A stretch of DNA of 64,000 nucleotides. Origin: a virus. Lineage: Duplodnaviria; Caudoviricetes. The notes beneath the pieces were generated by a model. The model was given only the letters and a program-made list of their open reading frames with translations, was not told where the DNA came from and made no database searches. Positions 8,825-62,256 of this stretch are shown here, piece by piece. The number at the start of each line of letters is the position of its first letter. Within the stretch, counting starts at the first letter, position 1. The DNA is taken from positions 32,001 through 96,000 of the IMG/VR virus record IMGVR_UViG_3300031993_000033; one strand, 5' to 3'. Both the position numbers and the translations under genes were made by a program.

Positions 8825-9499
8825 ATGATGTACACTAATATTTTAAAGTCTTTACAGGCTGAAAACACAAACCGCATAAACAACGCTATAAAGGCTATAA
8901 ATGATAATAATATAGCTTTACAGCGTTACGCAACACAGGCAAGATGGAGCGCATACTTCAATCAGAATTTAAGCCGTGAAAAGTGTGTGGAATACACCAC
9001 AAACCGCATAAAAAAGGAAGCTGAAAAGAGCTTAAAAGCTGATATAGCAAGCCTTGAAAAGTACGAAAACGCACCTACAATTGAAGCTATTCAGATTAAT
9101 ATTGATTGGAAGCGTTCAAGTGTATGGGGATATAATCCACACGTTACACTCCGCATATGGTATGAAGGTATATTTGACATTGAAGAATATACAGCAAAAG
9201 CAAGCGGCTGTAATTACGACAAAAGATCACACGCTGTAGCAAGCGCACTGAATCAGTGTGCAGCTATAAAGGCTTTACTTTGTAACATGAAGGAAAAAGA
9301 AATTGAAAACGGCACGGAAATAAAAAAGACTGTAAGCGGGCTTGACATAAATCCGCATTCTTCAGGCTATGGAGCTATACCCTTTGTTGATGGTTGCGGA
9401 ATGTCAGCAATTGAAAATTTACTGGACAAATGCGGCTTTAAACTTACAAAAGAGCACGGCACAAAAACGACTGATTATTATTGGTTTGACCGCAAATAA
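8825..9499 (+). CDS. hypothetical early protein
   Basis: ORF with AAGGAGG SD. Confidence 0.8.
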   Translation: MMYTNILKSLQAENTNRINNAIKAINDNNIALQRYATQARWSAYFNQNLSREKCVEYTTNRIKKEAEKSLKADIASLEKYENAPTIEAIQINIDWKRSSVWGYNPHVTLRIWYEGIFDIEEYTAKASGCNYDKRSHAVASALNQCAAIKALLCNMKEKEIENGTEIKKTVSGLDINPHSSGYGAIPFVDGCGMSAIENLLDKCGFKLTKEHGTKTTDYYWFDRK

Positions 9500-9606
9500 A
9501 ATTCAAATTTCAATGCAGAGTGACGCGGGATTTTTCCCGCGGTAATGCAGCCGGAGGCGGTCACAAGCCCGCTGAATCTGTAAATATATCTTTTGGAGGT
9601 CATACT

Positions 9607-10005
9607 ATGAAAAAGTGTAAAATCAGATTGACGGACAACAGCAAAAAGTTAATTTCTATGCTGGAAATTGATGATGTAAAAGCTATGATTCAGGAATTGC
9701 AGAATCAGGAGCTTGAAACAGATATTTTCAATCTCATTCCCGTTGCTATGGGATGTATTAAAAATTCAACATGGAGCTATTATGACGTAACAATGGAAAT
9801 ATGTAGAAATGCAAGAGTACCATATAATTACTACACGGAAAATAGTGCATACTATGATGTATGGGTAAATTTCAAGGCATTCAATGATTTTGACGGTTTT
9901 TATGTTGTTGGTATTTGCTTATCGGATATTTACAGCATATCAGAGGACAACAAACAGGAAATAAGACAGCATATGTATGTAAGAGAATACACGGAAAATA
10001 AATGA
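9607..10005 (+). CDS. hypothetical early protein
   Basis: GGAGG SD before ATG 9607. Confidence 0.75.
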   Translation: MKKCKIRLTDNSKKLISMLEIDDVKAMIQELQNQELETDIFNLIPVAMGCIKNSTWSYYDVTMEICRNARVPYNYYTENSAYYDVWVNFKAFNDFDGFYVVGICLSDIYSISEDNKQEIRQHMYVREYTENK

Positions 10006-10022
10006 AATGGAGGTTTAAAGCT

Positions 10023-10265
10023 ATGGCAAGACAGAAAATTACTATGGAAAAGCAAGTGAGAAATACGGTTATATATAACGATATTCTCAAGGCTATAGGT
10101 GGAAAAGCTAATGATACAATATCCATATACATTGACAGGAAATTTTACGCACATTATTCACGCTATTTAGGGAATGATGTATTTGACGATATTGCAGCAC
10201 ATAGCAACAAATCAGTTGATTTGATTGACGATCAGACAGGGGAAATTTTACGGCATAAAGCATAA
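10023..10265 (+). CDS. hypothetical early protein
   Basis: GGAGG SD before ATG 10023. Confidence 0.7.
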   Translation: MARQKITMEKQVRNTVIYNDILKAIGGKANDTISIYIDRKFYAHYSRYLGNDVFDDIAAHSNKSVDLIDDQTGEILRHKA

Positions 10266-10373
10266 TAAAATCAAAGTTTTAACATTTAGGCGGCTATTTG
10301 AATACGGAAATTTGAATAGCTGTCTATGTGCTAAAACACATAAATCTATTGGAAATTTAAAGGAGGCTATACT

Positions 10374-10718
10374 ATGAAATATCATAAGATACCAAAAATT
10401 GAAAAGTCGGTATGTACCGCGGAGCAGAAAATTGCATATAACTATGCATCCACATATGCGGATAGATACCGCGATACATGGAAAAAGACAGCGGATCAGT
10501 ATTGTGAATTTCAGAAGTCAGAATTTATACATGAAGCTGTTGAATGGTGTATGAAGCTGATGCGGAATAATGCGGAAATTCAGCGGAAATATGACATTGA
10601 CGCTATATTTTGCGCGCTTAATGCTGGAATGCGGAATTACTTTGAAGCTAAATATAGTATACTGTCAAGCTATGAAGAAATAGGAAAAATGTTTCCTGCT
10701 AACTATTTAAATGTATAA
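10374..10718 (+). CDS. hypothetical early protein
   Basis: AAGGAGG SD. Confidence 0.75.
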   Translation: MKYHKIPKIEKSVCTAEQKIAYNYASTYADRYRDTWKKTADQYCEFQKSEFIHEAVEWCMKLMRNNAEIQRKYDIDAIFCALNAGMRNYFEAKYSILSSYEEIGKMFPANYLNV

Positions 10719-10731
10719 AGGAGGTTTAATT

Positions 10732-11562: not shown

Positions 11563-11740
11563 GGAGGCGTGATTATGTATTGCACATTTAATGGAAAAAT
11601 CTGCTTAATGATGTGGGATATACAAGCGGAAAAATACGTTTATATTCCTGAGTCAGTGTGGTATAGCTTTACAGAAAAAGCAAGATCACGCTATACAGAA
11701 GAACGCACAAATTAAATGATTATAATATATCGGAAAGTTG

Positions 11741-11769
11741 TTGACAAAGTAACAAATGTGTGGTATACT
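11741..11769 (+). promoter_or_regulatory. sigma-A-type promoter
   Basis: TTGACA-N17-TATACT, extended -10. Confidence 0.75.
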
Positions 11770-11851
11770 ATAATCACAGGGAAAATCCCTGAATAGTTAT
11801 ACCCTAACAAGTAAACAAATGAAAAGTGTATTTTAACAGGAGGTCACGATT

Positions 11852-13312: not shown

Positions 13313-13413
13313 ATAAAATGACTGTTTAAACGTGAGCCGAAGCGGTCAGAAATGACCGTTTCCACATACGCTTAAACGGAAAATCAAAACAGCCGAAAGG
13401 CAAGGAGGTCAAT

Positions 13414-14366: not shown

Positions 14367-14558
14367 TTGATTATGAACTTAGACGAAGCTATCAAATTAG
14401 TATTAAAAGGTAAAGCTATTAGAGCTAAAGAATGGGAAGAAGGTATGTACTTTAAGATTCGATGGCGTATGTTTGAGACTGAGGGCAGCGTAAGAAGTAA
14501 ACTTTGGAAATGGAAGGATTCAGAGTTTGAAGAAGTGCTGTTTGATTATACCGAATAA
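14367..14558 (+). CDS. hypothetical protein
   Basis: AAGGAGG SD; true start may be ATG 14373. Confidence 0.6.
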   Translation: MIMNLDEAIKLVLKGKAIRAKEWEEGMYFKIRWRMFETEGSVRSKLWKWKDSEFEEVLFDYTE

Positions 14559-14593
14559 AATAACACTTTCATTTAGCAGAGAGGAGTTTTAAT

Positions 14594-16596: not shown

Positions 16597-17601
16597 TTGA
16601 TGACCATGTTGGGAAATTTAAAAGAAACTTGTAGAGTAATTGACATCTCACAGAGACAACAGTCGGAAAATTCTTTTGACTTTGATTTTGACAGCCTTAT
16701 TCCAGACGTAGAACAACTCACTCCCGAAGAAGAACAGGCGATAGCCGAAGCCGAGTCAAAACTCAAAGAACGTCAGGGCTTTGACTGTATGCCGATTGGA
16801 ATATTGAATGAGCTTCTGAGATATTTTCTTGACAGGCGTGACTTTCGATCTGTATTCTGGATTGTCTTACAGGCAAATACTGGACTGAGATATTCCGATG
16901 TTATCAAATATCGGCGCATTGATTTGTTGAATGAGCATAATAAATTCAGAGAGTCCATTCTTGAACAAGAACGGAAAACTGGTAAGCAGAGAGTCAACTT
17001 TATAAATGATGCTATCAAAATAGCTACACTAATGCTCATATGGGAAAATCCCAGTATAAAGCCTTTAGACTTGATGATTAGCTCTGAATACAATGATAAG
17101 GCTCACAACAAAGGCTATGAAAAAGAAACTTATATCAACGCCAATGGCGAAGAACGTTGTTTGAGAGTGAACGGAAAATACGTTTATAAGCTCGATGAAA
17201 ACGGAAACAAAATTCCGAAGGCTCTTGGTCGCAGTCGCAGTTGTACTATAATGCGCGATGCTATGGTAGAAGGACTTGGTATATGCCTTAAAAATGATGG
17301 TCGCACTAAGAACAATGACGGAGCTTATTTGAAGCTGGCAAGTCATTCCATTAGAAAAGCATACTCCGCTGGTGTTGTAGAGCAGTTTGAAAAGATGTTT
17401 GACAGCAATGAGGCTTACGCACACGCAGCGGCAATGGAACAGTTGCAGTACGATCTTAACCATTCAAGCAGATCTATGACTTATCATTATATAGGCGATT
17501 ATGCCGAGACAAAACGCAAAACAAACATGAATATGAATCTTGGTTTGGAAATTTTGAAGCCATATTTTGAGGCGGAACGAAAAAGATATTTAGAGAGGTG
17601 A
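16597..17601 (+). CDS. tyrosine recombinase (XerC/D/integrase family)
   Basis: Catalytic set: TGLRYSD (R), ERKTGK (K), SHSIRK (HxxR), LNHSS (H), TYHYIG (Y). Confidence 0.9.
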   Translation: MMTMLGNLKETCRVIDISQRQQSENSFDFDFDSLIPDVEQLTPEEEQAIAEAESKLKERQGFDCMPIGILNELLRYFLDRRDFRSVFWIVLQANTGLRYSDVIKYRRIDLLNEHNKFRESILEQERKTGKQRVNFINDAIKIATLMLIWENPSIKPLDLMISSEYNDKAHNKGYEKETYINANGEERCLRVNGKYVYKLDENGNKIPKALGRSRSCTIMRDAMVEGLGICLKNDGRTKNNDGAYLKLASHSIRKAYSAGVVEQFEKMFDSNEAYAHAAAMEQLQYDLNHSSRSMTYHYIGDYAETKRKTNMNMNLGLEILKPYFEAERKRYLER

Positions 17602-20139: not shown

Positions 20140-20156
20140 TAAAAGGAGGATTTAAA

Positions 20157-20342
20157 ATGGGTTATGAGCATGAAGAAAAATATATCGAAAAAGTAAAAGA
20201 AATACAGAGTATGCAAGATGCTGAAAAGTATAGATTATATATGCAATGGTGTAATGAATGTCCGAAAGCTCATGACTTTACCTGTTCAGGAGCAGATGCT
20301 AAAAAATGTGAACAAGAAAAGCAAAAGTTACTGGCTAAATGA
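20157..20342 (+). CDS. hypothetical protein
   Basis: AAGGAGG SD before ATG 20157. Confidence 0.65.
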   Translation: MGYEHEEKYIEKVKEIQSMQDAEKYRLYMQWCNECPKAHDFTCSGADAKKCEQEKQKLLAK

Positions 20343-20357
20343 AAGGGGAGTTTTATT

Positions 20358-20738
20358 ATGAGTGACTACTGCCACAAAAAAGTCATAAGAATGAAAATAT
20401 CAGAAGAAGAAGCCTGTGAGATATTTGGTGTTGATGACGGTTGGGGTATATCAGACTTGCTTGAGAAAACAGAGTTTGAAATCGCTCCTACATCCGATTT
20501 CTTTATTGACTATGTTCTATTTTCCAGAAATGATGCTGAAGGTGATTGGGGCAGAACAAGACGGTTAGGCAATGCTGAGTATTTAAAGTATGGTAGCAAG
20601 TTTAGAAAACTTCTTAAACGCAGAATCGTTATGCCTAATGAACTAAGACTTGTCGAATACTGTTGGTATGATTGCAGCGAAGCCCCAGATTATTTTGACG
20701 AGCCGACTGATCACGATGACTTTTACGATGAGGTGTAA
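20358..20738 (+). CDS. hypothetical protein
   Basis: GGGGAG SD. Confidence 0.7.
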   Translation: MSDYCHKKVIRMKISEEEACEIFGVDDGWGISDLLEKTEFEIAPTSDFFIDYVLFSRNDAEGDWGRTRRLGNAEYLKYGSKFRKLLKRRIVMPNELRLVEYCWYDCSEAPDYFDEPTDHDDFYDEV

Positions 20739-20741
20739 ACT

Positions 20742-21029
20742 ATGAAACGAGTTTGTCCTTATGATGAGATCACGCCTATGAGTCTTACGGGTTGTCACCA
20801 GTGTGGTTTTAGACTGATTTGCTCGGAATACGAAAAGGCTCTTAGATATATGTACAGTTATATTCGTATGGGCAACTCAGCAAGGATATGTGGTAAACGG
20901 ATAATGGCAGAAGATTTGAGAGACATTTATAGAAATAAGTTAGAAATGATTAGTAATAGCTTTTGGCGATGGACTTCTAATGAAGAATTGCTGAAAGATA
21001 TTGCCGTACATGAGGTGAGATATTTATGA
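20742..21029 (+). CDS. hypothetical protein
   Basis: GAGGTG SD. Confidence 0.65.
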   Translation: MKRVCPYDEITPMSLTGCHQCGFRLICSEYEKALRYMYSYIRMGNSARICGKRIMAEDLRDIYRNKLEMISNSFWRWTSNEELLKDIAVHEVRYL

Positions 21030-21460
21030 GAGTAAATGTTAAAAACTATATGTATAGATGGTTTGATGATATGTTGATTTTGCAGACCGAGGATGACAAC
21101 GTTCTCTATATTTATTGCCCAAGTGAGTGCATATATAATGATGGGATTTCACGTTATTATTGTTACAAAGAAAATCTTCAAGCAAGAGAGTTGTTGGAAA
21201 TTGATTATGTAGATTATCATACGGAATCAGACTCAGATATTTCTTGTGACGGAATTGCTCACTTTATTCAGTATAGGAATAATAAGAAAATCATTATGCG
21301 TGGATATAGATGTTGTAAACATAGAAAACTTCCAGATGATATTCTTAATAAAGCTGGTGGATATTGGTATCACCGAAATGATAATGAAACAGTTGAAAAT
21401 GATAAAAAGAAGCGTCAGTGGTCAGATTTTATATCTGTTATAAGTGATGCAATAAAATGA
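21026..21460 (+). CDS. hypothetical protein
   Basis: ATGA-coupled ORF. Confidence 0.65.
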   Translation: MRVNVKNYMYRWFDDMLILQTEDDNVLYIYCPSECIYNDGISRYYCYKENLQARELLEIDYVDYHTESDSDISCDGIAHFIQYRNNKKIIMRGYRCCKHRKLPDDILNKAGGYWYHRNDNETVENDKKKRQWSDFISVISDAIK

Positions 21461-21488
21461 AAGTCTTGTTTTATTAAGGAGGTTTATT

Positions 21489-22091
21489 GTGGATTACGAC
21501 ACGATTTACAATGGCACAACAATAGATGGTGTTAAAGCCATTACAGATGCTTTAGAACTATCAGCATATGAACATAAAAAATTAGAAAGGCATCAGAAAC
21601 TAAGTCAGCTTGCAGATGAAGATGTAGCTTATACAATCAGAAAGAACGTCAATTATTTATGGGTTGATTATTACTTTGATGATGCAAAAGAATGGCTTGA
21701 TATAAGAACTCAAAAATACGATAAGCGTAAAAAGTATAAGGAAAAAGATGCGTATGAATACCTTGTAAATGAAATCAAAGAAATTTTTCAAGTTGATACT
21801 TGCGAGATAATTAGAATGTGCTATGAAGGATATGAACAGTATTCCAGATGGATAGAATTTACAACCGATAGTGATTATATATTTCATATGACTATCCCAG
21901 TTGTGAAAAGAATCACGCCTAAACTTATGTCTTATGTTTATTATGGCAAGGTTACAATTGGATATTATGTAGGCGAAAATTATAGAAGAATATGTGGGGC
22001 TTCTTATAATACAACAGAATTAAAACCAATTATGGATGAAATTCTAACATCTGAAGAATACAAAAAGCATTTGTCAAAGATGAAAGAATAA
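21489..22091 (+). CDS. hypothetical protein
   Basis: AAGGAGG SD, GTG start; flanked by junction sites 21458 and 22081. Confidence 0.7.
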   Translation: MDYDTIYNGTTIDGVKAITDALELSAYEHKKLERHQKLSQLADEDVAYTIRKNVNYLWVDYYFDDAKEWLDIRTQKYDKRKKYKEKDAYEYLVNEIKEIFQVDTCEIIRMCYEGYEQYSRWIEFTTDSDYIFHMTIPVVKRITPKLMSYVYYGKVTIGYYVGENYRRICGASYNTTELKPIMDEILTSEEYKKHLSKMKE

Positions 22092-22162
22092 TTTTATCGG
22101 TAAAATAACGACGTAGAATAGCCAAAAAGTGGCTCTAAAAATTACATGAAATTTCACTTTTA
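22081..22162. repeat. complete composite element: core site - 14 nt - ACGTAGAATAGCC..TGGCT motif - 12 nt - core site
   Basis: TGAAA-GAATAA-TTTTA (22081-96), ACGTAGAATAGCCAAAAAGTGGCT (22111-34), TGAAA-TTTCAC-TTTTA (22147-62); partial copies with the same spacings elsewhere. Confidence 0.7.
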
Positions 22163-22170
22163 TGAGGAGG

Positions 22171-22578
22171 ATGAAGATGAGTGAACTCACATTGGACGAA
22201 GCCATAAAGCATTGCCTTGAAGTGGCGGAGCAGAATGAAATAGATTCAATAACGTACAAGAACTGCAAAGAAATCAAGACCAATATGTATGAAAAGCTAC
22301 TCGCAGAAAAAGTGGAGAATGACTGCTTAGAGTGTGCCGCAGACCATAGACAGCTTGCAGAGTGGCTTAATGAGCTTAAAGAAGCAAGAAAGCTATTGAC
22401 CGCCACAAAGTACAGGGTGAAGCATGAAGAATGGGATATGCACGGAGAGCATTACATAGGCGATTATGCGTTATGTCCTAACTGCAATAAATGTTTTACA
22501 AATATCTATAACGGCAAAGCAGCTCCAGTTGTTACATTCTGCCCTGACTGCGGTCAGAAGATAGACTGGAATGAATAA
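22171..22578 (+). CDS. zinc-ribbon hypothetical protein
   Basis: CPNC...FCPDCGQKIDW. Confidence 0.7.
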   Translation: MKMSELTLDEAIKHCLEVAEQNEIDSITYKNCKEIKTNMYEKLLAEKVENDCLECAADHRQLAEWLNELKEARKLLTATKYRVKHEEWDMHGEHYIGDYALCPNCNKCFTNIYNGKAAPVVTFCPDCGQKIDWNE

Positions 22579-22621
22579 AACGTGTCTTAGACGGCAAAGA
22601 CGAATTTGAAACAAAGGAGAA

Positions 22622-22888
22622 ATGAAAATGGCTGAAAGTTGGAATGATATATTTGGTGGACAATTTGCCAAACCAGATGTTAAACATGATAAACTAATTG
22701 CAAAAGCAGTTGAGTGTTACACCGAAAAGCTTGAAGAAGAAAATAAGGTGTTGAAAGATATTATAAGGCAGATAGATGATGCTTTTATGTCCTTTAACGG
22801 TAAGAGCAAGTCTACTGATGATATAATTAATGAGATTATTGATATTCTGAAAGTTTATAGAGATGCGTTTAGGGAGGAAGCACCATGA
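22622..22888 (+). CDS. hypothetical protein
   Basis: AAGGAG SD. Confidence 0.65.
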   Translation: MKMAESWNDIFGGQFAKPDVKHDKLIAKAVECYTEKLEEENKVLKDIIRQIDDAFMSFNGKSKSTDDIINEIIDILKVYRDAFREEAP

Positions 22889-23259
22889 AAGAGTACTTAG
22901 AGCTTGAAAGGGTGCTTGATGATAGTCATATCATCACAGTACAAACAAGGGACTATGGCAGTTTAGAGGTTGTGCCTGTTGAATACCTTGCAAATTTACC
23001 AACCGTAGAACTACAAACCATAAAAGATGTAGTTGTACCAAAACTTGAAAAACATAACATAAAACGTGGTTATCCTGATATGACCGAGGGAGAAGTAGCT
23101 GCTTATATATTAGGATTCAACGAGCATGAGAAGCTTAATATGGGGCATTGCTATATTGATAATGAGGGGTACGAAAGATGTTCTGTATGTAATGAGCATG
23201 AAACAGGTATGAGATATGCCTCATTCTGCCCGAGATGCGGCGTCAAGCTGAAACACTGA
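22885..23259 (+). CDS. zinc-ribbon hypothetical protein
   Basis: CSVC...FCPRCG. Confidence 0.65.
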   Translation: MKEYLELERVLDDSHIITVQTRDYGSLEVVPVEYLANLPTVELQTIKDVVVPKLEKHNIKRGYPDMTEGEVAAYILGFNEHEKLNMGHCYIDNEGYERCSVCNEHETGMRYASFCPRCGVKLKH

Positions 23260-23276
23260 AACAAGGAGAACTAACA

Positions 23277-23597
23277 ATGACGCTTGAACAAACTATAAAC
23301 GATTGTGAAAGACTTGCAGATCAGCAAGAAGCAATAATTAAAAATATTAAAAATAATTTGGCGGGTACTCCAATTAAAGAGTATATAGATGAGTGTTCTG
23401 AGTGTTCTGCTTATTCTAGGCAGATTGCAGAATGGCTTACGGAACTTAAAGAGTGGAAGGCAAATCCGTTTAGCCTGATTAAAACAGAGTGCAAAAATAA
23501 TTACTACTGTAATAAGTGTGCTTTTCTCGACCATTGTCCATTTTCAAACGGGAACAGAGTTGCGGCAGAACACCCGATGGACTGGGTTGTATATTAA
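23277..23597 (+). CDS. hypothetical protein
   Basis: AAGGAG SD; shares C.EC....RQ.AEWL.ELKE with the 22171 ORF. Confidence 0.65.
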   Translation: MTLEQTINDCERLADQQEAIIKNIKNNLAGTPIKEYIDECSECSAYSRQIAEWLTELKEWKANPFSLIKTECKNNYYCNKCAFLDHCPFSNGNRVAAEHPMDWVVY

Positions 23598-23626
23598 AGT
23601 TGCATTTTATTGGAGGTGAACAATGA

Positions 23627-23860
23627 ATGACCAATGATAAACTTGATAAGGCTATTGCTACAAGAAAGAAAATGTCAGAGTACGATGATATAATTAAAAT
23701 GCTCAATGACAATCAGTACGACCATTTTAACATACATGGAGTGTGTAGCGATGGTGTGAGCGACTACATAGACCTTTTGCCTGATGATTGTTTAAAGGCT
23801 GTAAAACAATGGTATATAGACGAGTGGATAAAGTTAAAGGAAGAATTTGAAAAGATATGA
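23627..23860 (+). CDS. hypothetical protein
   Basis: GGAGGTG SD; flanked by junction sites. Confidence 0.65.
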   Translation: MTNDKLDKAIATRKKMSEYDDIIKMLNDNQYDHFNIHGVCSDGVSDYIDLLPDDCLKAVKQWYIDEWIKLKEEFEKI

Positions 23861-23886
23861 AAGCTACATTTTATCGGAGGTGAACC

Positions 23887-24084
23887 ATGAGAGACATAAA
23901 CAGACTTGATAAGTTCTACGACGAGCTTAAAGAGATACATAAGAAGAACTTTCCTGATTGGCGTTTCGGTCAGATGATAGTCAATGTGTTGGCTGATTGG
24001 CAAGCTAAGACCAAGAGAGATATTTTCTTTCCCGAAGAAGATGAGATGATACAGATATTCAGGGATTATGTAAACAAAACTTGA
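23887..24084 (+). CDS. hypothetical protein
   Basis: MRD.NR....PDWRFGQ small phage family; flanked by junction sites. Confidence 0.7.
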   Translation: MRDINRLDKFYDELKEIHKKNFPDWRFGQMIVNVLADWQAKTKRDIFFPEEDEMIQIFRDYVNKT

Positions 24085-24111
24085 AACCTACGTTTTATTG
24101 GAGGTGAACAC

Positions 24112-24312
24112 ATGAGTAATCTTGAACATCTAATTGAGAATACGCTGGTAGCTATGGAAGATAATACGTTGTGCTACGAAGATATTTGTAAGCGCATTAA
24201 GAACGATGTTAACTTTCCCTACACTTCATTGTCAGCAGATGATGTGTTAGAGATATGCACATATTTTCTGTATACATGGTGTGGAACTTGCGAAAAGTGC
24301 AATAGGAGATGA
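24112..24312 (+). CDS. hypothetical protein
   Basis: GGAGGTG SD. Confidence 0.65.
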   Translation: MSNLEHLIENTLVAMEDNTLCYEDICKRIKNDVNFPYTSLSADDVLEICTYFLYTWCGTCEKCNRR

Positions 24313-24318
24313 TAAGAG

Positions 24319-24633
24319 ATGACAATTAATATTCAAGAACTGCTTGACAAAGGCTATAAAGAGTTCCCACCAACAAGGTTTGATACTGCGGATAAATGCT
24401 TTCAGAAGCGGTTTACGACAGAGAATGGTGATACGCTGTATTTTATCAACGTTAATATGTATTACTCTTGGGGTTCAGTTCCAGAGAATTTTGAAGTTGA
24501 AACGCAGCTCTATCAGAAAGGAACGCATGAGCCTGTAAATCTGAAGTTCTTCTGTGATTGGACTTTGGCAGATGTCGAGGATTATGTGCAACGAATTTAC
24601 GAAGTGGGGTTTGAGCCGTATGAAGAATCGTGA
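24319..24633 (+). CDS. hypothetical protein
   Basis: ORF in operon. Confidence 0.65.
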   Translation: MTINIQELLDKGYKEFPPTRFDTADKCFQKRFTTENGDTLYFINVNMYYSWGSVPENFEVETQLYQKGTHEPVNLKFFCDWTLADVEDYVQRIYEVGFEPYEES

Positions 24634-24808
24634 TTGGTTAAACAATATGGCACTTATTGATATGCTAAATATAATTAACGAGCGATTTGATGGATGTTTT
24701 GTTTATAGAATGGAAGAACAAGATTTTAATTCCATAGACGGGCGTTGTGAGAAATATAATTGGGACTGTTACAAATGCATCGCAGCGTGGTTAAACGAGG
24801 AGAATTAA
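24620..24808 (+). CDS. hypothetical protein
   Basis: MKNRDWL...C.KCI.AWLNEE. Confidence 0.6.
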   Translation: MKNRDWLNNMALIDMLNIINERFDGCFVYRMEEQDFNSIDGRCEKYNWDCYKCIAAWLNEEN

Positions 24809-24809
24809 T

Positions 24810-25139
24810 ATGACCACATATGAATTATTCAGAACACAAGACAGAGGATTTTTTGAGCCTGTAAATATGATTGATGTCAAGGAAGTCATTGCCAACAATC
24901 CTAACGGAATGTGCCTGTGGGTTCAAACGCCCGATTACTATATGGAAGTTGACTGCCCTGATAGGTATAACATGAACGCAAGGTTTGATGTTGAGGGCAA
25001 GATGTTGGTCAACAAGCTGTTTCCTTATAGCTTTACAGGCTTCATGGACGCTTGCAATTGGTTTGATGAGCAAAGAGCTACTTACCGCTTCGCTGAACTT
25101 ATAGGGAGGAAGAAACCGTGGACATCAGACAGCAGATAG
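24810..25139 (+). CDS. hypothetical protein
   Basis: GAGGAG SD. Confidence 0.65.
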   Translation: MTTYELFRTQDRGFFEPVNMIDVKEVIANNPNGMCLWVQTPDYYMEVDCPDRYNMNARFDVEGKMLVNKLFPYSFTGFMDACNWFDEQRATYRFAELIGRKKPWTSDSR

Positions 25140-25360
25140 TCGAGCTTTGCAAGGAGCGCATAGCCGCCGCTAAAGACAAAAAGGAACTGCGGTTGTACCT
25201 ATATGATATAATCGCGGCTCTTAATGGCGGCGAGAGAAATCCGCTGAAGATAACCAATAAGGCAGTCGCAGAGAATATCCTGTACACTATCCGGCAGTAT
25301 GGGACTGAGGAACAGGCGAGGAAAGCGACTGAGATAAACAATGTTTGGCAAAATCTGTGA
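25118..25360 (+). CDS. hypothetical protein
   Basis: GGAGG SD, GTG start. Confidence 0.6.
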   Translation: MDIRQQIVELCKERIAAAKDKKELRLYLYDIIAALNGGERNPLKITNKAVAENILYTIRQYGTEEQARKATEINNVWQNL

Positions 25361-25397
25361 AAACAGTTTGCATATACTATTAGAAAGGAAGTAAACT

Positions 25398-26120
25398 ATG
25401 TCAGAAACAAAGAAGAAGTCGGTGTTTGAAACGCTGGCGAGCATCGACACAACAAATGATGTGGTGTCTAAGGGCGACGGTAAGTATTCTGTTACTTATG
25501 TTCCGTGGGCGCGTTCAATCGAAAAACTGCGTATGTATTATCCTGATGCCATTATTGAGGAGTGTACTTTTAAGACTCAGAAGTTAGTCTCGGTGCTTGC
25601 CTCTAAAACAGCAGAAGGGGAGACATACCATAGTGAGCTTGTCGAGGTTGAACTTCCCTACGGCACAGACGGTAATACCTGTTGGGTTAAGACCTGCGTT
25701 AAGATACCGTCACAGGGCATTGAGGAATACTGCACCCTGCCTATAATGGACAACCGCAATCAGGCTGTTCCTGCGGCAAACGTAAAGAGCACAGACGTAA
25801 ACAAGGCTCTCAGGCGTTGCGTGGCAAAGAATATAGCGTACCTCGGATATGGCTTATCATCATGGTTAAAGGATGACTACACTGATCTTGCAAAGGATAA
25901 GAAGGTGTTGGACGGACTTGACAGACAGGACGCTATTGGCAAGTTTAAGGCTAAGATTAAGGACGGCTATGACCGCGATAAGCTGGCTGCTTGGTTACAG
26001 GCAAACTTTGGCGGTTGCAAGAACCCGATGAATCTGAGCGATGAGCTTCTTGAAAGGCTTAACGAGGAGCTTGACAAACTGGACATTAAGGACTTTCAGT
26101 CCGAGAAGAAATCTAAGTAA
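25398..26120 (+). CDS. Sak3/DUF1071-like single-strand annealing protein
   Basis: Y.PWA....YPDA, LPIMDNRNQAV, DVNKALRRC.AK..A..G.GL; adjacent to ssb. Confidence 0.75.
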   Translation: MSETKKKSVFETLASIDTTNDVVSKGDGKYSVTYVPWARSIEKLRMYYPDAIIEECTFKTQKLVSVLASKTAEGETYHSELVEVELPYGTDGNTCWVKTCVKIPSQGIEEYCTLPIMDNRNQAVPAANVKSTDVNKALRRCVAKNIAYLGYGLSSWLKDDYTDLAKDKKVLDGLDRQDAIGKFKAKIKDGYDRDKLAAWLQANFGGCKNPMNLSDELLERLNEELDKLDIKDFQSEKKSK

Positions 26121-26137
26121 TGGAGGTTATTTAAGTA

Positions 26138-26542
26138 ATGAATAAGGTAATTCTTATAGGCAGAATCTCAAGCGATATTGACGTAAGACAGACTCAGGGT
26201 GGCACTTCCACGGCTACATTTAACATTGCTGTGGATAGAAATATAGGGGCTGGCAAGGATAAGGCAACCGACTTTATCCGTTGCGTAGCTTGGGGCAAGA
26301 CAAGCGAATTTCTGGCTAAATATTTCAGCAAGGGCAAGCAGATAGCTCTTGAGGGCAATATCAAAACCGGCTCTTACGAGAAGGACGGCACTAAGCATTT
26401 CACAACTGATGTGTGGGTAGACAAGGTGGAGTTTGTCGGCTCTAAGGGCGACGGTGGTGCTAAGACTGAGACACAGGCAGCTCCGGCAAAGGCTGAGACA
26501 CCTGCCGAAACAGAGACAGCTTCAGAAGATATTCCTTTCTAA
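26138..26542 (+). CDS. ssb: single-stranded DNA-binding protein
   Basis: MNKVILIGR..., DFIRCVAWGK, C-terminal DIPF. Confidence 0.95.
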   Translation: MNKVILIGRISSDIDVRQTQGGTSTATFNIAVDRNIGAGKDKATDFIRCVAWGKTSEFLAKYFSKGKQIALEGNIKTGSYEKDGTKHFTTDVWVDKVEFVGSKGDGGAKTETQAAPAKAETPAETETASEDIPF

Positions 26543-26549
26543 TGGTAAA

Positions 26550-26567
26550 GCCGCCCTTCGGGGCGGC
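26550..26567 (+). terminator. GC-rich hairpin after ssb
   Basis: GCCGCCC-TTCG-GGGCGGC; no strong U-tract. Confidence 0.5.
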
Positions 26568-26595
26568 AAGCCTATAATATAAAAGGAGTGGTAAG

Positions 26596-27333
26596 GTGGA
26601 CTTAACTAAAAAAGAGTGGTCGTATAGCTCTCTCAAACTCTACGAGACTTGTCCGTGGGCGTTCTATCTGAAATATGTTGAGGATATAACTGAGGGCGAT
26701 AATGCCTTTGCACAACACGGTTCACTGGCTCACAGCATTTTAGAACGCTGGGCGAAGGGTGAGCTTTACGAGTTTGAGCTTGCGGACACATTTGAACAAG
26801 AATATGATATGTGGGTGACTGAGAAGTTCCCATATTTTAATATGTATAAGGCTTTCTACGACAAGACTCTTGCATACTTCCAGAATTTTGACGGCATTGC
26901 CGGTGAGATAATCGGGGTAGAGCAAGAGCTGAAAGCTGTGATAGGTGGGCATAAGTTTATCGGATTTGCGGACTTAATAGTGCGTGACGAGAACGGAATT
27001 GTGCTCATAGATTACAAGTCGCACGGTGCTTGGAAGTCCAAGAAGGAACGTGCCGACTATATGCGCCAGCTTTATCTGTACGCTTACCGCATAAAGGAAA
27101 TGTACGGCGAGTTTCCGTATAAGTTAGTATTCAATAAGTTCCGGTGCGATGAGCCGTGGGACGAGGAGCTGTTCAAAGAGGGCGACTACACGGCGGCGAT
27201 AGACTGGTTCAAGGTTGGCGTTGATACAATACTGGCTACGACTGACTGGGAGTGCAAGGTTGATAAGTTTTACTGTGAGAGCCTTTGCAGACTGAATTGC
27301 GTTTATAGTGGGGTGGATGAAGATGATAGATAA
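26596..27333 (+). CDS. PD-(D/E)XK exonuclease (RecB/Cas4-like)
   Basis: SYSSL..YETCP, G..AH..LE, GFADL..IDYKS, QLYLY, C-terminal Cys cluster. Confidence 0.85.
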   Translation: MDLTKKEWSYSSLKLYETCPWAFYLKYVEDITEGDNAFAQHGSLAHSILERWAKGELYEFELADTFEQEYDMWVTEKFPYFNMYKAFYDKTLAYFQNFDGIAGEIIGVEQELKAVIGGHKFIGFADLIVRDENGIVLIDYKSHGAWKSKKERADYMRQLYLYAYRIKEMYGEFPYKLVFNKFRCDEPWDEELFKEGDYTAAIDWFKVGVDTILATTDWECKVDKFYCESLCRLNCVYSGVDEDDR

Positions 27334-29203: not shown

Positions 29204-29208
29204 TTAAT

Positions 29209-29793
29209 ATGCAGAGAAATGATGTAATTTACGGCAAGAAAACAGATGATTTACAGAAATGCTCATACGTTGAGGTCTGGCTGCGTGACGGTGATAATGG
29301 ATTTGGTGTCTGTTATCACCACGCCGGTCACGGCTGTATTTGGCATTACTTGCTCAAAAATGTTGACAAGTACGATGAGGTCGTTAATACAATACTTGAG
29401 CTTATTTGTGGTGCTGATAGTTTCACAGAGGTCTACGACATACTTGTTGACTATTTCTCGTCGGACGATATATACGAATACTTGGACGATGAGCCGGAGT
29501 ATGAAGAACCGCCTATGAGGTCGGAAGAAGAAATCCGCGAATATGAGTCAGAAGCGTTTGATCGCGTGTGGCTTGTGAGAAAGCAAAATATGTTTGTCAA
29601 TATGCTTGAGGGTACTGAGAGTGTGCAGGTTGACATTCTCGACGGTTGCATAAAGGCTATTGATAAGGTGTGCGAGAAGTATGGGATAGACTTCAAAGAG
29701 CCTGTAAGCGATTGGGACTACGGTTATTGGAGTGGTATACTGGCTGCGCTGAGATGGGTTATGGGTGACGAAAAGGATTTCTTAGATACATAA
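29209..29793 (+). CDS. hypothetical acidic protein
   Basis: GGAG SD; ends G.LAALRWVMGDE..FLDT. Confidence 0.7.
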   Translation: MQRNDVIYGKKTDDLQKCSYVEVWLRDGDNGFGVCYHHAGHGCIWHYLLKNVDKYDEVVNTILELICGADSFTEVYDILVDYFSSDDIYEYLDDEPEYEEPPMRSEEEIREYESEAFDRVWLVRKQNMFVNMLEGTESVQVDILDGCIKAIDKVCEKYGIDFKEPVSDWDYGYWSGILAALRWVMGDEKDFLDT

Positions 29794-29795
29794 GG

Positions 29796-32915: not shown

Positions 32916-32919
32916 GGTA

Positions 32920-32948
32920 TTGACATTCTAATATTTATGTGTTATAAT
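32920..32948 (+). promoter_or_regulatory. sigma-A-type promoter
   Basis: TTGACA-N17-TATAAT with TG extension. Confidence 0.8.
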
Positions 32949-33019
32949 AGTAATCAGAGGGTAAGGCAACTCGCCCTCTGGTATTTTTTTACATTTTAAA
33001 GTCTAAAAGGAGTGTTAAT

Positions 33020-37995: not shown

Positions 37996-38058
37996 AATAG
38001 CCAAAAACAGGCTATAAAAACTGGATAAAATAAATCTTTTATGCGAAAGGAAGATGTA

Positions 38059-38796: not shown

Positions 38797-38883
38797 ATTT
38801 GCCTATTCTACGTAGGTCAAAACTGAATAAAACGGTTCTTTTATGTGATTGCAAAATAATAAATTAGTGATAAGGAGAGAAAA

Positions 38884-39747: not shown

Positions 39748-39833
39748 TAGCCGAAAAGTGGCTCTATTTATCCAATAAAACTTTACTTTTATTGACTGAC
39801 AGAGTAACAAATTAGAAACAAGGAGGAATTTAA

Positions 39834-42338: not shown

Positions 42339-42456
42339 AGGCATGGATGTTATCAAGCGTTGTTACAGTGGGGGGGGTATTTCTCCTTCACTCACTACAA
42401 TGCAAGGTGGGCAGCGAGAACCCAAAATTTTACAACGTAGAATAGCCAAAAAGTAG
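42298..42456 (+). CDS. TRD-like mini-gene M8 (G8, in frame)
   Basis: MKNEIKVIVNLPIKGMDVIKRCYSGGGISPSLTTMQGGQREPKILQRRIAKK; AAGGAG SD. Confidence 0.7.
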   Translation: MKNEIKVIVNLPIKGMDVIKRCYSGGGISPSLTTMQGGQREPKILQRRIAKK

Positions 42457-42492
42457 CCCTAAAAAAGCAATAAAAGATTCGTTTTAAGTGAG

Positions 42493-43401: not shown

Positions 43402-43429
43402 TTAAACCTGTGTTTTATGAGGTGAAATA

Positions 43430-43804
43430 ATGAAAGATTTTTATGAAAGAGAAATCCAAGTGGGAGATATATGTGCTTTTTGGGACGGCGATCATCTTGA
43501 TAGTAGACGAATTTGGGGATATGAAGGCGACTCTGTTGAGATTTCAGACTATCACAAGACTTTAATTAAGAAAGCTAAAGAAGTTATAGACATTACTGCT
43601 ATCGAGAGACAGATACACTCAGAGACTTTTATCAATTCTGTAAAGACTCTTGATGTAAAACCTGATAGTACAGTGGTGGCGTCAATTATACCTAATCAAA
43701 TATCTTACACGGAAGCAACCAAAATGTTTGATGGTTTAAAGGCAATGTTTCCAAACAATGAGGTATCAATGGTTATGGGAGTTGATGTTACGGTTGAAAA
43801 TTAA
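43430..43804 (+). CDS. hypothetical protein
   Basis: GAGGTG SD; flanked by junction sites. Confidence 0.7.
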   Translation: MKDFYEREIQVGDICAFWDGDHLDSRRIWGYEGDSVEISDYHKTLIKKAKEVIDITAIERQIHSETFINSVKTLDVKPDSTVVASIIPNQISYTEATKMFDGLKAMFPNNEVSMVMGVDVTVEN

Positions 43805-43832
43805 ATTCTGCTTTTATGTGAAAGGAGACTGA

Positions 43833-44634: not shown

Positions 44635-45840
44635 ATGATTGCGAACAGAGTAGAACAACAGATTATCCGCAGGACGCATTCGTTGTGGGGTGTCATTGAC
44701 GAAATGTGCTTTAATGCGAAGAATCTTTATAATTATGCTAATTATATTATTAGGCAGGAATATATTAATAACAAACGATATGTCTCATACAAAGAAATGA
44801 ACATCAATCTCAAAACACATCAGCAATATAAAGATTGTATGAGCCAACCTGCGAATTGTGTTCTGCGTTTGCTTGATAAGAATTGGAAGTCATTTTTTAA
44901 AGGTTTGAAAGAGTATGAAAAGAACCCAAAGAAATTTCTCGGCAGACCTCAAATGCCAAAATATCTCAAGAAAGATGGTAGATTCAATTGGATGATACCA
45001 AACAACGCTTGCTATTTTGAGAATGGGGAACTGAAATTTAGAGTGCTCAAATTGCAATCCGTTAGGTGGAAATGCAGATGTGTCGGCAGGTTAATTCAAG
45101 TGAGATTTGTCCCAAAGGGTTGTGTATACGTCATGGAGATAGTATCTCAGATTGAAGTTCCTGATGCTATGTCCGATAACAAGCGTATTGTAGGAATTGA
45201 TTTAGGTGTTAATAATCTTGCTACAACTTCAAATAATATTGGTGAGCAGCCATTTATTATTAACGGTAGAGGATTAAAGAGCATAAACCAATTCTATAAT
45301 AAACGCAGATCTGAACTACAATCTAAATTACCCAAAGGTCAGTTTTGGAGTAAACAACTTGAACAAATAACTTTCAAGCGGTTCAACAGAGTCAAGAATT
45401 ATATGCACCACGCAAGCCATTACATAGTCAAATGGTGTGTACAACATCAGATAGATACTTTAGTTGTAGGACATAACGACGAGTGGAAACAGAACCTTAG
45501 AATGGATAAAGTAAATTCGCAGAACTTTGTTTTTATTCCTTATAAAATGTTGATACAACAGCTTAAATATAAATGTGAAGATGTAGGCATTGAGTTTGTT
45601 GAAACTGAAGAAAGTTATACAAGTGGAACAAGTTTTTTAGATGGAGAACTACCGTGTAAAGAAAATTACAATAAAAGACGGAGAGTTAAAAGAGGGTTGT
45701 TTCAAGCAAATAATACTCTAATCAATTCAGACGTAAACGGCAGTTTGCAGATAATTAGAAAGGTATTTCCAGATGCTTTTAGCTATGGGATAGAGGTGTG
45801 TCTAACACCTACTATAATTAATGTAGTGAATGGGTGCTAA
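44635..45840 (+). mobile_element. tnpB: TnpB (IS200/IS605-family RNA-guided endonuclease), no tnpA
   Basis: AKNLYN, GIDLGVNN (RuvC I), YK....GI...EESYTS, NSDVNGS (RuvC III). Confidence 0.9.
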
Positions 45841-45874
45841 CCCAATAGAAGAAACATTTAATGCGAGGTGACTT

Positions 45875-60563: not shown

Positions 60564-60678
60564 AATAACTCTCCTTTCTCCCCAAAATTGTTAATGGGGT
60601 GAGCGATTGCATCCATTATGTGCAATCGGTGTGTAAAATGAATGAATTTATATCAAGGCTATTGCCCTAATACCGAAA

Positions 60679-60903
60679 TTACCTCCTATTTAGCATTGAA
60701 TAAACTTGCCTCTGAATAAGTGGAGGTATTTGTCCGTTCTGTGCAAAATACCTAACCGCCTGTTCTGGCGTTTGTATATCTTCCGGTAAATTCTTAAAAT
60801 ACTGTCGCCAATTAGGAGCAAACTGCTGATAAGCCTGACCAAAATCTGGCTGTTGCATCTGCCCTTGCATTGGTTGATTTTGTGACACAAAAGGATTAGC
60901 CAT
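60679..60903 (-). CDS. Q/P-rich hypothetical protein
   Basis: Coupled ORF. Confidence 0.65.
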   Translation of the reverse strand: MANPFVSQNQPMQGQMQQPDFGQAYQQFAPNWRQYFKNLPEDIQTPEQAVRYFAQNGQIPPLIQRQVYSMLNRR

Positions 60904-61271
60904 TAACCTTTCAACTCCTCTACAATTTTCTTCATGTCATCAATCGTTTGTTTATAGGTTTCAAACTCAGACTTCGTTATATAGTCAGACAAATCTATAT
61001 TTGATGTGTTTTGCACTTGTTCCTCATTCTTAGGATTGTTGTCTCCTACTTTTTCAAGGCGATAAACTTCAAACAAAAAGGGTTCAAGAATAGACATTCC
61101 AACAGATTTTTTATAAACAAACCCCTCGTTTTCATTAATGAAATTAACAGAAGTATTAGGGTCAACTCTCCACTTATATGCGACTTCCTCAGAAGGCACA
61201 TTTATAAATGTGGTCATTTGAGGTTGTTGCATACCATAACCATATTGATTCCCCCAAGCCGTTTTAATCAC
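60903..61271 (-). CDS. conserved hypothetical protein
   Basis: YITKSEFE motif. Confidence 0.65.
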   Translation of the reverse strand: MIKTAWGNQYGYGMQQPQMTTFINVPSEEVAYKWRVDPNTSVNFINENEGFVYKKSVGMSILEPFLFEVYRLEKVGDNNPKNEEQVQNTSNIDLSDYITKSEFETYKQTIDDMKKIVEELKG

Positions 61272-61647
61272 CTTCCTTCGTATAATAATATATTGGTGTT
61301 ACTAAGCCACTGTCCCAAGAATCATACCAGTCTCCATTTATAAGTCCAATGGCATGACTGCCAGTAGCGAGGATATACGAGCCATTGGGGTGCTCATTTG
61401 CAAAATCTACAACTGAATAACAATAAGGGCAGTCGTTAGAGCAAATATATCTCTTGAAGCCTCTACGTCTAAGATAAGCATCCCATACCGCATTATTGTT
61501 TCCCCAATCACCCATAAAATATCCTTCGCCACACAGTTCTATATATATCTTTTCCCACGGTTCACCTGTCACAACAGAGATTGCTCTTATAACACAATCC
61601 CCTGCACGATAATTTTCTCGTGGGTTGTTACAGTAATATATATACAT
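61264..61647 (-). CDS. putative cysteine-peptidase-like protein
   Basis: NNP....GDCVIRAI, H.I...NG..YDSWDS (candidate Cys-His-Asp triad). Confidence 0.6.
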   Translation of the reverse strand: MYIYYCNNPRENYRAGDCVIRAISVVTGEPWEKIYIELCGEGYFMGDWGNNNAVWDAYLRRRGFKRYICSNDCPYCYSVVDFANEHPNGSYILATGSHAIGLINGDWYDSWDSGLVTPIYYYTKEGD

Positions 61648-62177
61648 TACCTCTTACCAAATCTTGCCTGTTTGTCATAAATCGTGTCAAGATTCCAATT
61701 AATGCCTTTTCTCACTCTGTAAATCCTCTCTGCTTCTTTAAGTTCAAGGTCTACATCTCTGACAAAACGCGTTATAAATTCTGCTGACGCTACTTCTGAA
61801 ATATCCACAAGGTTGCGGTAGGAGTCCTCATACAATATTTTAGATTGTTTCTCCCATTTAATCCATTCGTTCATACCATATTGTATAAGTCTCATTTTAT
61901 CTTCTGATGTAAGATCATCGGTAGACTTATCTAATAATGGCATATCAAGAATGTCAATCTGTGGTGGGTTATTTGCGACTAAAATATCGTGATGATGTTG
62001 AATGTAGTATTTGCACAACTCAGAATATCCATGAGTTTCTTCTTGTAACTGATTTTCCTGTTTTCTCATATCAGGGAGTAAATCAACGAAGGCAAATATC
62101 TGAATAAGCTGAGAGTGTATCATCATTGCTCCGACCATTCTGTTGCCAAGTGCTGTGTAAATTTCATGTAATGTCAT
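61647..62177 (-). CDS. ferritin-like fold protein
   Basis: H..L, EE..G, W..WE, DVD.EL helical pattern. Confidence 0.5.
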   Translation of the reverse strand: MTLHEIYTALGNRMVGAMMIHSQLIQIFAFVDLLPDMRKQENQLQEETHGYSELCKYYIQHHHDILVANNPPQIDILDMPLLDKSTDDLTSEDKMRLIQYGMNEWIKWEKQSKILYEDSYRNLVDISEVASAEFITRFVRDVDLELKEAERIYRVRKGINWNLDTIYDKQARFGKR

Positions 62178-62256
62178 TAAATTTATCCTTTCCTTAGTTT
62201 TAACGTCTTTTCAGACAAGATTTAGGTTTGTTGCGTATGTTAAAATTACCTTTTTA

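Follow-up and report, generated by a model that had tools for sequence, protein, structure and literature searches.

Slot-specific 16-bp sites at early-gene junctions of a rumen phage: a possible natural form of cassette exchange

Whether phage mosaicism arises through random illegitimate joining followed by selection, or through recombination at special boundary sequences, is an old question, and in the early genes of one large rumen phage such boundaries are visible: 16-bp sites at gene junctions are conserved to the letter among phages, while the genes between the sites are unrelated. The window analysed here is a stretch of 64,000 nucleotides that spans bases 32001-96000 of the IMG/VR virus record IMGVR_UViG_3300031993_000033. 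This record, 104,704 bp long and bounded by direct terminal repeats, represents a phage of ~105 kb, named G000 below, from bovine gut metagenomes; positions refer to the window unless the genome is named. A sequence-only reading of the window had noticed about 30 of these sites and proposed an integron- or shufflon-like cassette system. The question raised by this locus is what the sites do, and the comparisons described below indicate that they are very probably places where DNA is exchanged and inverted.

A spacing-specific motif at gene junctions

The motif TDAAA-N6-TTTHA (T[AGT]AAA-N6-TTT[ACT]A) was found 36 times in the window, against 3.59 +/- 1.81 matches (largest value 9) in 100 dinucleotide-preserving shuffles of it, an enrichment of about 10-fold. 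When the spacer was varied from N0 to N20, 36 matches occurred at N6 and no more than 9 at each other spacing, and the strict form T[AG]AAA-Nk-TTTTA gave 19 matches at N6 and no more than 5 elsewhere. The whole 104.7-kb genome holds 40 matches, nearly all of them at 9.5-44 kb of the window, with almost none in the structural half, and about 27 sites are intergenic, at + strand junctions of the early block. The claim of about 30 N6 sites at gene junctions was thus confirmed, the enrichment being both N6-specific and junction-bound. All coordinates proposed at the outset were located, and the degenerate or odd sites at 22576, 22594, 34405 and 45846 exist as described. Sites that escape the strict pattern carry a TCAAA, TAGAA or CGAAA arm; those at 8525 and 8796 (TCAAA), as well as the site at 7659, had been overlooked.

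Each site is closely fitted to the genes around it. The upstream stop codon is overlapped or abutted by 16 sites; in these, motif positions 1-3 read TGA or TAA, or positions 2-4 read TAA, and position 2 is G, A or T because this stop codon forms part of the left arm. In most cases 1-24 nt separate the end of the site from the next start codon, and the site stands directly 5' of the Shine-Dalgarno sequence (SD). The information profile extends the consensus to W-TNAAA-B-N4-V-TTTNA-W, one additional symmetric position on each side, with nothing beyond positions -1 and +17. Inverted arms of 5-6 bp around a 6-bp centre have the layout of an Xer/dif-type core site, whose central region measures 6-8 bp. 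The suggestion that the sites are built like tyrosine-recombinase core sites consequently fits, and the genome encodes two tyrosine recombinases.

Nine intragenic pattern matches, at 11853, 11947, 33384, 35790, 50084, 51046, 54354, 56990 and 62788, stand outside this set and are at chance level, or are kept merely through lying in homologous genes. The match at 33384 is a gene start (ATG/TTG AAA TTT ACA ...; gene 33383-33844) with its own SD in all three phages that carry the motif. The open reading frame (ORF) at 33020-33844 probably consists of two units or has a variable front part, as homology to the relative G001 begins exactly at 33384.

Cassette exchange and inversion at conserved sites

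Comparison material comprised more than 80 loci of related phages, found through the pentapeptide protein, a 142-aa early protein, the recombinase YR2 and the PAPS-reductase gene. An excess of N6 sites was observed in one lineage only, formed by G000 and two phages from other samples, G001 (99,373 bp; 31 matches vs 4 for the control pattern) and G002 (106,087 bp; 24 vs 7); G003 is a fragment of the phage of G002 from a different sample. A crude search for other gapped motifs in the distant relatives returned nothing comparable. Backbone genes of G000, G001 and G002 share 67-93% DNA identity, and for most window genes at 8.8-24.6 kb and 36.9-45.8 kb, tblastn finds no match in any part of G001. 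Nearly every junction site in the window nevertheless has a counterpart in G001, G002 or both: 21 sites are shared with G001 and 15 with G002, in the same order and with nearly all centres identical at 6/6 positions. Site E (centre AGTGTA) is the only one that also occurs in more distant relatives (G006, G007).

The DNA around these shared sites is of a different kind. Among 52 same-centre pairs with 80-nt flanks, both flanks were unrelated in 35, one was homologous in 10 and both in 7. Between consecutive shared sites, tblastx coverage is either about 0 or about 1, and segment lengths differ. Aligned site by site, identity starts at the first T of the motif or the preceding A and stops at the last A or extends only into the SD, so that perfect identity covers just 12-17 bp at many shared sites and 22-28 bp at some islands that reach into the SD. 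A motif-blind search for isolated exact matches led to the same places, since the collinear islands of at least 16 nt are mainly these sites.

Within the sites, the arms and the centre behave differently. The left arm is identical in 11 of 12 pairs with a homologous left flank vs 15 of 40 without one, and the right arm in 10 of 10 pairs with a homologous right flank vs 26 of 42 without. The arms travel with their own flank, and the centre is common to both partners. At a per-base identity of about 85%, roughly 38% of 6-mers would be expected to survive unchanged; 19 of 21 centres were fully conserved, and this conservation is therefore not neutral. Breakpoints of gene gain, loss and replacement among the relatives fall at the sites, as had been predicted. 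Shuffling within the genome, which had also been envisaged, found no support: site order is conserved and each centre is specific to its slot, and the main process is therefore replacement of a cassette within its slot.

Individual sites document this process. As a single 16-mer returns at least 110 chance matches in IMG/VR and is of no use at such length, site X (42471-42486, centre GATTCG) was traced through two collections by a 25-mer that includes its SD. Six records contain five combinations of left and right flanks. One metagenome contig (L199) joins a G000-type left flank to a G001-type right cassette at site X, and another (L201) joins the left flank of G002 to a fourth cassette. The slot between site X and site Y (43402-43417, centre CCTGTG) holds four mutually unrelated inserts of 915, 262, 289 and 592 bp. 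Insertion is documented at site E, two direct copies of which flank a 1.4-kb, four-ORF insert in G002; the window and G001 have a single copy. Additionally, contigs of two further studies break or rejoin at site edges (23611 to 23860, 24098 to 24319, 22163 to 36724 and 20736 to 21457, with a loose end at 38827/38828); all sequencing runs used, X1, X3 and X6 among them, are Logan contigs, not raw reads. Among the contig-joint ends in the displayed part of the joint table, 8 of 34 lie within 3 nt of a site edge, for which a rough estimate of chance is about 1%.

Inversion takes place between two copies of one site. A stretch of 239 bp (34164-34402) is flanked by two perfect 16-bp copies of site Q (34148-34163 and 34403-34418), which are inverted relative to each other and have complementary centres. 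It encloses a 70-codon ORF on the - strand together with an SD and a promoter-like element. Site Q itself spans 34146-34161 (centre GTTTGA, its left inverted repeat being 34148-34163) and is found in G001 and G002; its inverted copy Q' spans 34403-34420 (centre TCAAAC on the + strand). In the window the segment is in the OFF orientation. When the 239 bp are flipped, the ORF, which encodes the first 70 codons of the PAPS-reductase-like gene, fuses to the 3' part of that gene (34493-35485, + strand, 330 aa), yielding a single frame of 423 aa, in which Q' is read as NKIKL. This product is 95% identical over its full length to a natural PAPS-reductase-domain protein (P0113), and a 90%-identity cluster of 147 members contains both the 423-aa and the 330-aa forms, each on several contigs, some exceeding 100 kb. 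The flipped orientation was seen in a viral contig from another sample (L206), with a 16-bp overlap at the joint, and in a contig of run X3 that joins 34148 to 34419 on opposite strands, where 16 letters fit both sides. In G002, a promoter-like element in forward orientation follows site Q by 15 nt. Inverted repeats enclosing a segment present in both orientations were thus found, as in known invertible switches; the flipping segment turns a PAPS-reductase-domain gene ON (423 aa) or OFF, and both orientations occur in nature. Only one inverted pair exists in each of G000 and G001. More distant homologues of the protein (P0115, P0128) lack this internal site. A further protein (P0112, 125 aa, on a 107-kb contig) consists of the first exon followed by unrelated sequence after the site. 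A serine invertase was ruled out as the flipping enzyme, as neither G000 nor G001 encodes a serine recombinase. The sites, their conserved addresses and order, the all-or-none homology of cassettes, the reassorted flanks and both inversion states are all seen directly in these genomes and contigs.

Gene direction in the window is + from ~8.5 to 56.4 kb and - to either side. The + block contains small ORFans throughout 8.8-24.6 kb, a replication and recombination module at 25.4-33 kb (Sak-like annealing protein, SSB, exonuclease, primase-helicase and DnaE), and, at 34-46 kb, the PAPS-reductase-like gene, a pentapeptide-repeat protein, five DNA methyltransferases, a radical SAM protein and TnpB. 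The DnaE-type polymerase is ~40% identical to polymerases of large Clostridium, Clostridioides and Geobacillus phages. Ten cassette genes tested gave no informative PHROG matches, and eight early genes and YR2 gave no Pfam matches.

The first site, 7659-7674 (ATCTTA), lies in the divergent intergenic region; its counterparts in G001 and G002 match the centre at 5/6 positions. The same region, between the - and + blocks, holds a 10/11 palindrome with an 8-nt centre at 7774-7803 (AAGTATACAAA ... TTTGTATACTA), which may be an operator or origin element. Two sites with TCAAA arms follow, 8525-8540 (CAATAA, identical centre in G002) and 8796-8811 (TTAATA, identical centre in G001 and G002). At 9497-9512 (TTCAAA, identical in G002) the TAA stop occupies positions 1-3; at 10003-10018 a TGA stop does so, and the centre TGGAGG, which is also an SD, is kept in G001 and G002 between unrelated flanks, as is TCAAAG at 10266-10281. 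Site E, 11820-11835, stands in a 5' leader behind a conserved TTGACA/TATAAT promoter and is present in G001, G006 and G007 and twice in G002. This canonical early promoter (TTGACA ... TATACT/TATAAT) and a small hairpin, kept in the three phages, occupy 11740-11820, ~50 nt upstream of the site. The centre TGACTG at 13314-13329 is kept in G001 with unrelated flanks, and TAACAC at 14556-14571, where the TAA stop is at positions 1-3, in G001 and G002.

At 20140-20155, a site-like sequence with an SD as its centre (GGAGGA) has no counterpart in the relatives and is possibly coincidental. TGA stops occupy positions 1-3 of the sites at 20340-20355 (GGGGAG, kept in G001) and 21458-21473 (GTCTTG, in G001 and partly G002), the latter adjoining contig joints that end at 21457. 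The upstream stop is contained in the centre GAATAA at 22081-22096, which is identical in G002, and the centre TTTCAC at 22147-22162, in G001 and G002, borders the joint 22163 to 36724 of run X6. At 22576-22609, two adjoining degenerate sites (CGTGTC and GACGAA) are duplicate addresses of the sites at 37175 and 36688. They precede the gene 22628-22888, a paralogue of gene 36719-36991, and a GACGAA site stands before each paralogue (22540-22640, 36670-37215). The CGTGTC site is directly before one paralogue and behind the other, an arrangement suggestive of an earlier duplication or of a junction like that of a circle; this small gene family sometimes carries along a degenerate copy of its upstream site. 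Further on, GTTGCA at 23594-23609 (TAA stop at positions 2-4; in G001 and G002) opens a slot in which three unrelated cassettes were found. The two subsequent sites each hold a TGA stop at positions 1-3: 23858-23873 (GCTACA), with the joint 23611 to 23860 in run X3, and 24082-24097 (CCTACG, in G002), with the joint 24098 to 24319 in run X6.

Beyond the replication genes, GTTGAG at 35525-35540 is found in G001 within a homologous block. At 36688-36703 (GACGAA, TGA stop at positions 1-3), homology to G001 stops within the right arm, and at 38026-38041 (TAAATC) it stops 2 nt past the site. Between them are 37175-37190 (CGTGTC), whose degenerate duplicate address is at 22576, and 37410-37425 (TATGCC, TGA stop at positions 1-3), which reads CATGCC in G001. 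A contig of run X3 matches from 38828 onward, at the site 38828-38843 (CGGTTC), with unrelated DNA upstream. The cassette that runs from 39776-39791 (CTTTAC) to 42471 is 96% covered in G002 and is absent from G001. The site at 43801-43816 (TTCTGC, TAA stop at positions 2-4) has an identical centre in contig L201, and the degenerate site with a TAGAA arm at 45846-45861 (GAAACA) is an isolated identity island shared with G001 and G002. A site-like 16-mer at 62241-62256 lies at a - strand junction; its membership is uncertain, the identical 16-mer occurring in G007, which is without the system.

Some of these junctions are accompanied by another repeated element, in which CGTA[GAT]AAT precedes AGCC-AAAAA-nn-GGCT; it combines a -10-like hexamer with a small palindrome and has no -35. 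Its + copies, at 22112-22146, 37991-38025, 39741-39775 and 42436-42470, each start exactly 35 nt before a site (22147, 38026, 39776 and 42471); - strand copies are located at 44603, 38812 and 34389, one within the invertible segment and one facing tnpB. It is probably a mobile promoter/operator module that travels with some cassettes. The idea that the cassettes are promoterless does not hold for all of them, given a promoter-like element at some junctions. The tnpB gene (44635-45840, OrfB_IS605 and Cas12f-like TNB domain) has no TnpA nearby and is absent from G001, and the - strand element lies just upstream of it. A perfect sigma-70-type promoter (TTGACA, 17 nt, TG-TATAAT) at 32920-32948, between DnaE and the next gene, is the sole 12/12 match in 20 kb.

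Junctions of the replication genes (25398-32915) contain no sites. These genes are themselves swapped alleles, with identities between G000, G001 and G002 of 26-40% for DnaE, 39-44% for Sak and 40-50% for SSB, in phages that share YR1 and many other genes at 80-100% identity.

Candidate enzymes and competing explanations

Two tyrosine recombinases, YR1 and YR2, are common to the three motif-bearing phages. YR1 consists of 342 aa and is encoded on the - strand at genome 22663-23691, 8.3 kb before the window start. It contains a PF00589 domain and is SAM-like at its N-terminus. Among proteins of solved structure XerH is its best relative, in an alignment that shows R, HxxR, W and Y; against the XerC, XerA, XerD and XerS models its likeness is at family level, far below the cut-offs. 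YR1 is 89-90% identical in G001 and G002, and no copy of it was found in four complete, motif-less relatives of ~110 kb. YR2 (16597-17601, + strand) is divergent, with the catalytic residues R98, K127/130, H250, R253, H289 and Y298 invariant in 31 homologues; it has no PDB relative by sequence and no NCBIfam match. Its identity is ~36% among the motif-bearing phages and 42-55% with complete relatives that lack the motif. The sequence-only reading had named YR2 as the enzyme; it is a real tyrosine recombinase, yet a weaker candidate than the Xer-like YR1 outside the window because of this low identity and its presence in motif-less relatives. YR1 fits better and is the best candidate predicted from these comparisons.

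The sites used by XerH and XerS, difH and difSL, have inner arms of the form ...TGAAAA / centre / TTTTC... (PMC5357621), and these single-recombinase Xer inner arms are close to T(G)AAA / N6 / TTT(T/C)A of the phage motif. A long dif-like site next to YR1 was searched for and not found; palindromic 11-bp arms matching at 9/11 positions occur only at 36688 and 39776. Lysogeny modules differ within the lineage. G001 encodes an additional tyrosine integrase (30663-31163, - strand, in a 406-aa frame) and G002 a large serine integrase (95731-96156, - strand, in a 526-aa frame); G000 has neither. The extra integrases of G001 and G002 suggest that YR1 is not the lysogeny integrase.

Together, these observations modestly favour site-specific recombination by a phage-encoded Xer-like tyrosine recombinase, in which each 6-bp centre would be a slot-specific overlap address. 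The inverted arms (W-TNAAA / TTTNA-W) would bind the recombinase, presumably YR1, and strand exchange would run across the centre, with cleavage at its edges. Recombination would then occur only with the same slot of a co-infecting or resident relative. Two events at neighbouring sites would swap the intervening cassette and leave gene order undisturbed, a circular cassette would enter through a single event and come to lie between two copies of the site in direct orientation, and an inverted pair of sites would allow the intervening DNA to flip. A cassette would comprise a right arm, SD, one or more ORFs and a stop codon that lies in the next left arm, and each swap would therefore leave complete genes. 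We infer which enzyme acts, that it cleaves at the centre edges and that the centres have to match. In Cre, FLP, lambda Int and Xer recombination, strand exchange requires a matching central sequence in both partners. To our knowledge, this requirement is the sole property that explains centres unique to each junction yet identical between phages. The role of the central region has been described for Xer (PMC5357621).

Several points weigh against this mechanism. The conserved arm measures only 5-6 bp, vs 11-13 bp in dif, lox and FRT. The link to the enzyme is correlative and drawn from few related genomes: the association of YR1 with the motif contrasts three close with four distant relatives and is confounded by phylogeny. 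The centre differs by 1 nt between genomes at two shared sites, 37410 and 43402 (vs G002). Genes at 46-56 kb are also replaced, although there are no sites there, and the gene family of 36719-36991 occupies different slots, its G001 member, placed before site M, having no site ahead of it; the sites are not the sole route to mosaicism. The material consists of assembled contigs, in which no excised circles, cleavage or Holliday-type products were seen. Finally, conservation of the centres within a lineage is not explained by selection at the level of the individual, unless the cassettes are selfish mobile units.

The main rival, which we regard as unlikely, is short-homology recombination, by which the Sak-like protein, exonuclease and SSB would act at islands of 14-28 bp, the arms existing for another reason and the centres being microhomology. 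Rad52-like phage recombinases drive mosaicism through short, diverged homologies, and a complete Sak/SSB/exonuclease module is encoded at 25398-27333 on the + strand. Some islands do extend into the SD, to 22-28 bp, and PeSL (promoter early stem-loop) motifs in T4-type phages are thought to act in this manner (PMC2839356). Many islands, however, are perfectly identical over only 12-17 bp, and short homology explains neither the palindromic 5-6-5 layout common to nearly all of them nor the importance of a fixed 6-bp spacing. Reversible inversion between 16-bp inverted repeats, repeatedly encountered in both states, is no typical annealing product, and Sak itself is just 39-44% identical among the three phages.

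It is considerably less probable that a host XerS-, XerH- or XerCD-type enzyme is hijacked at mini dif-like sites, as by integrative mobile elements exploiting Xer (IMEX), with the phage recombinases serving integration or dimer resolution. Such exploitation of host Xer by mobile elements is well documented (reviewed in PMC5357621), and the inner arms of the motif resemble those of difH and difSL. Nevertheless, the motif is confined to one lineage, although the phages compared probably have hosts in common, and the separate integrases of G001 and G002 leave YR1 free for another role.

A mainly regulatory function is improbable to a similar degree. The sites would serve as an operator or roadblock for a dimeric repressor, comparable to stoperators, or as an RNA or translation signal, and breakpoints would coincide with them through selection and illegitimate recombination. 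Their position immediately upstream of the SD in the early operon, the location of site E in a leader behind a conserved promoter and the 5-6-5 palindrome, which suits helix-turn-helix dimers, agree with this reading. A protein that reads the arms, however, gives no reason for centres that are unique to each site yet kept between phages. Moreover, an arm hairpin is unstable as RNA (dG ~0 to +1.6 kcal/mol), promoter and terminator signals do not exceed those of shuffles, random breakage would seldom end each upstream ORF precisely in the left arm, and the inversion shows recombination within the site itself. A secondary regulatory role may exist. Among narrower readings, a stand-alone RNA hairpin was rejected for the same stem energies (mean minimum free energy -0.66), a promoter or terminator on the basis of consensus scans (51 vs 50.4 and 15 vs 13.4 in shuffles), and TTTTAT as a -10-like element because transcripts would begin inside the SD.

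A compositional accident of AT-rich junctions, in which a stop codon and A-run precede a T-run before the SD, can practically be dismissed: the left arm often holds a stop codon and three centres are SD sequences, but enrichment is confined to N6, shuffles yield 3.6 matches, more than 80 loci of similarly composed related phages lack the motif, and entire 16-mers are kept between genomes.

Relation to known systems

If site-specific recombination with the centres as addresses is correct, these phages would contain a dedicated molecular mechanism for ordered mosaicism, giving the 'linker sequence' idea an enzymatic form. Large phages could then renew their early and probably anti-defence genes quickly (methyltransferases, PAPS-reductase-like and radical SAM proteins, ORFans) while the genome keeps working, and about 30 orthogonal sites, served by one small enzyme, would be available as a ready-made set for recombination. 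Full-text literature searches found PeSLs and phage-borne integrons, and no natural system with slot-specific centres or dozens of addresses.

Integrons share with the phage the one- or few-ORF cassettes between sites of the same orientation in an operon, a tyrosine recombinase and a content that varies among relatives. Their attC sites, in contrast, are imperfect palindromes of 57-141 bp folded as single strands (R''-L''...L'-R'), unlike the 16-bp phage sites with arms of 5-6 bp; integrons have a single attI entry, free cassette order and an additional domain in IntI, whereas each phage slot has its own address in a fixed order. YR1 scores 23.4 bits on the integron-integrase model TIGR02249, against a cut-off of 265. 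The integron comparison was accordingly not borne out, the sites not being attC-like and neither recombinase an integron integrase.

The shufflon comparison fared no better. Shufflons have sfx sites clustered in inverted orientation at the 3' end of one gene and use Rci; the phage sites span 36 kb with one inverted pair. Shufflons and other invertible switches (Rci/sfx, Fim, Bacteroides invertons) resemble the PAPS-reductase locus in that a segment with a promoter and a gene's 5' end is flipped between short inverted repeats, and populations contain both states. These switches use a tyrosine recombinase; in the phage, all the remaining sites of the ~30 occur once each, at separate junctions.

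PeSL motifs of T4-type phages (PMC2839356, PMC4122927) are similar as repeated intergenic motifs in early hyperplastic regions that mark breakpoints of insertion, deletion and replacement. They consist of a promoter and a terminator stem-loop, are alike everywhere and act through homologous recombination, with shuffling and mini-circles, whereas the phage sites are 16 bp long, show no promoter or terminator excess and have unique centres.

Xer/dif systems (XerH/difH, XerS/difSL and IMEX) share inverted arms around a central region of at least 6 bp and the inner arms GAAAA / centre / TTTTC (PMC5357621), and XerH is the nearest solved relative of YR1. A dif site, by contrast, occurs once per replicon, has arms of 10-11 bp and serves dimer resolution; the phage has about 30 sites with arms of 5-6 bp and about 30 different centres at gene junctions.

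In position, the sites are reminiscent of mycobacteriophage stoperators and start-associated sequences, of which dozens of short conserved copies lie in small intergenic gaps near stops and starts. Those are one asymmetric sequence, bound by a repressor or including the SD, and are not known as breakpoints, whereas the phage sites have symmetric arms and a centre that differs from site to site.

Cassette exchange with heterospecific lox or FRT sites (recombinase-mediated cassette exchange), a laboratory design, has the same logic: arms are identical, spacers differ, like recombines with like, and a cassette is replaced in place. The engineered form uses two sites with 13-bp arms, and the phage has dozens of addresses. 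In its working, the system would come closest to recombination of the Xer/dif type, extended to about 30 heterospecific sites, with the logic of engineered cassette exchange. We therefore put forward, tentatively, a natural, genome-wide form of recombinase-mediated cassette exchange, in which about 30 mini dif-like sites with unique addresses and one Xer-like enzyme would allow early genes to be traded slot for slot, the same enzyme flipping a DNA-modification gene; if the centres are addresses, heterospecific-site cassette exchange would have here its first counterpart in nature.

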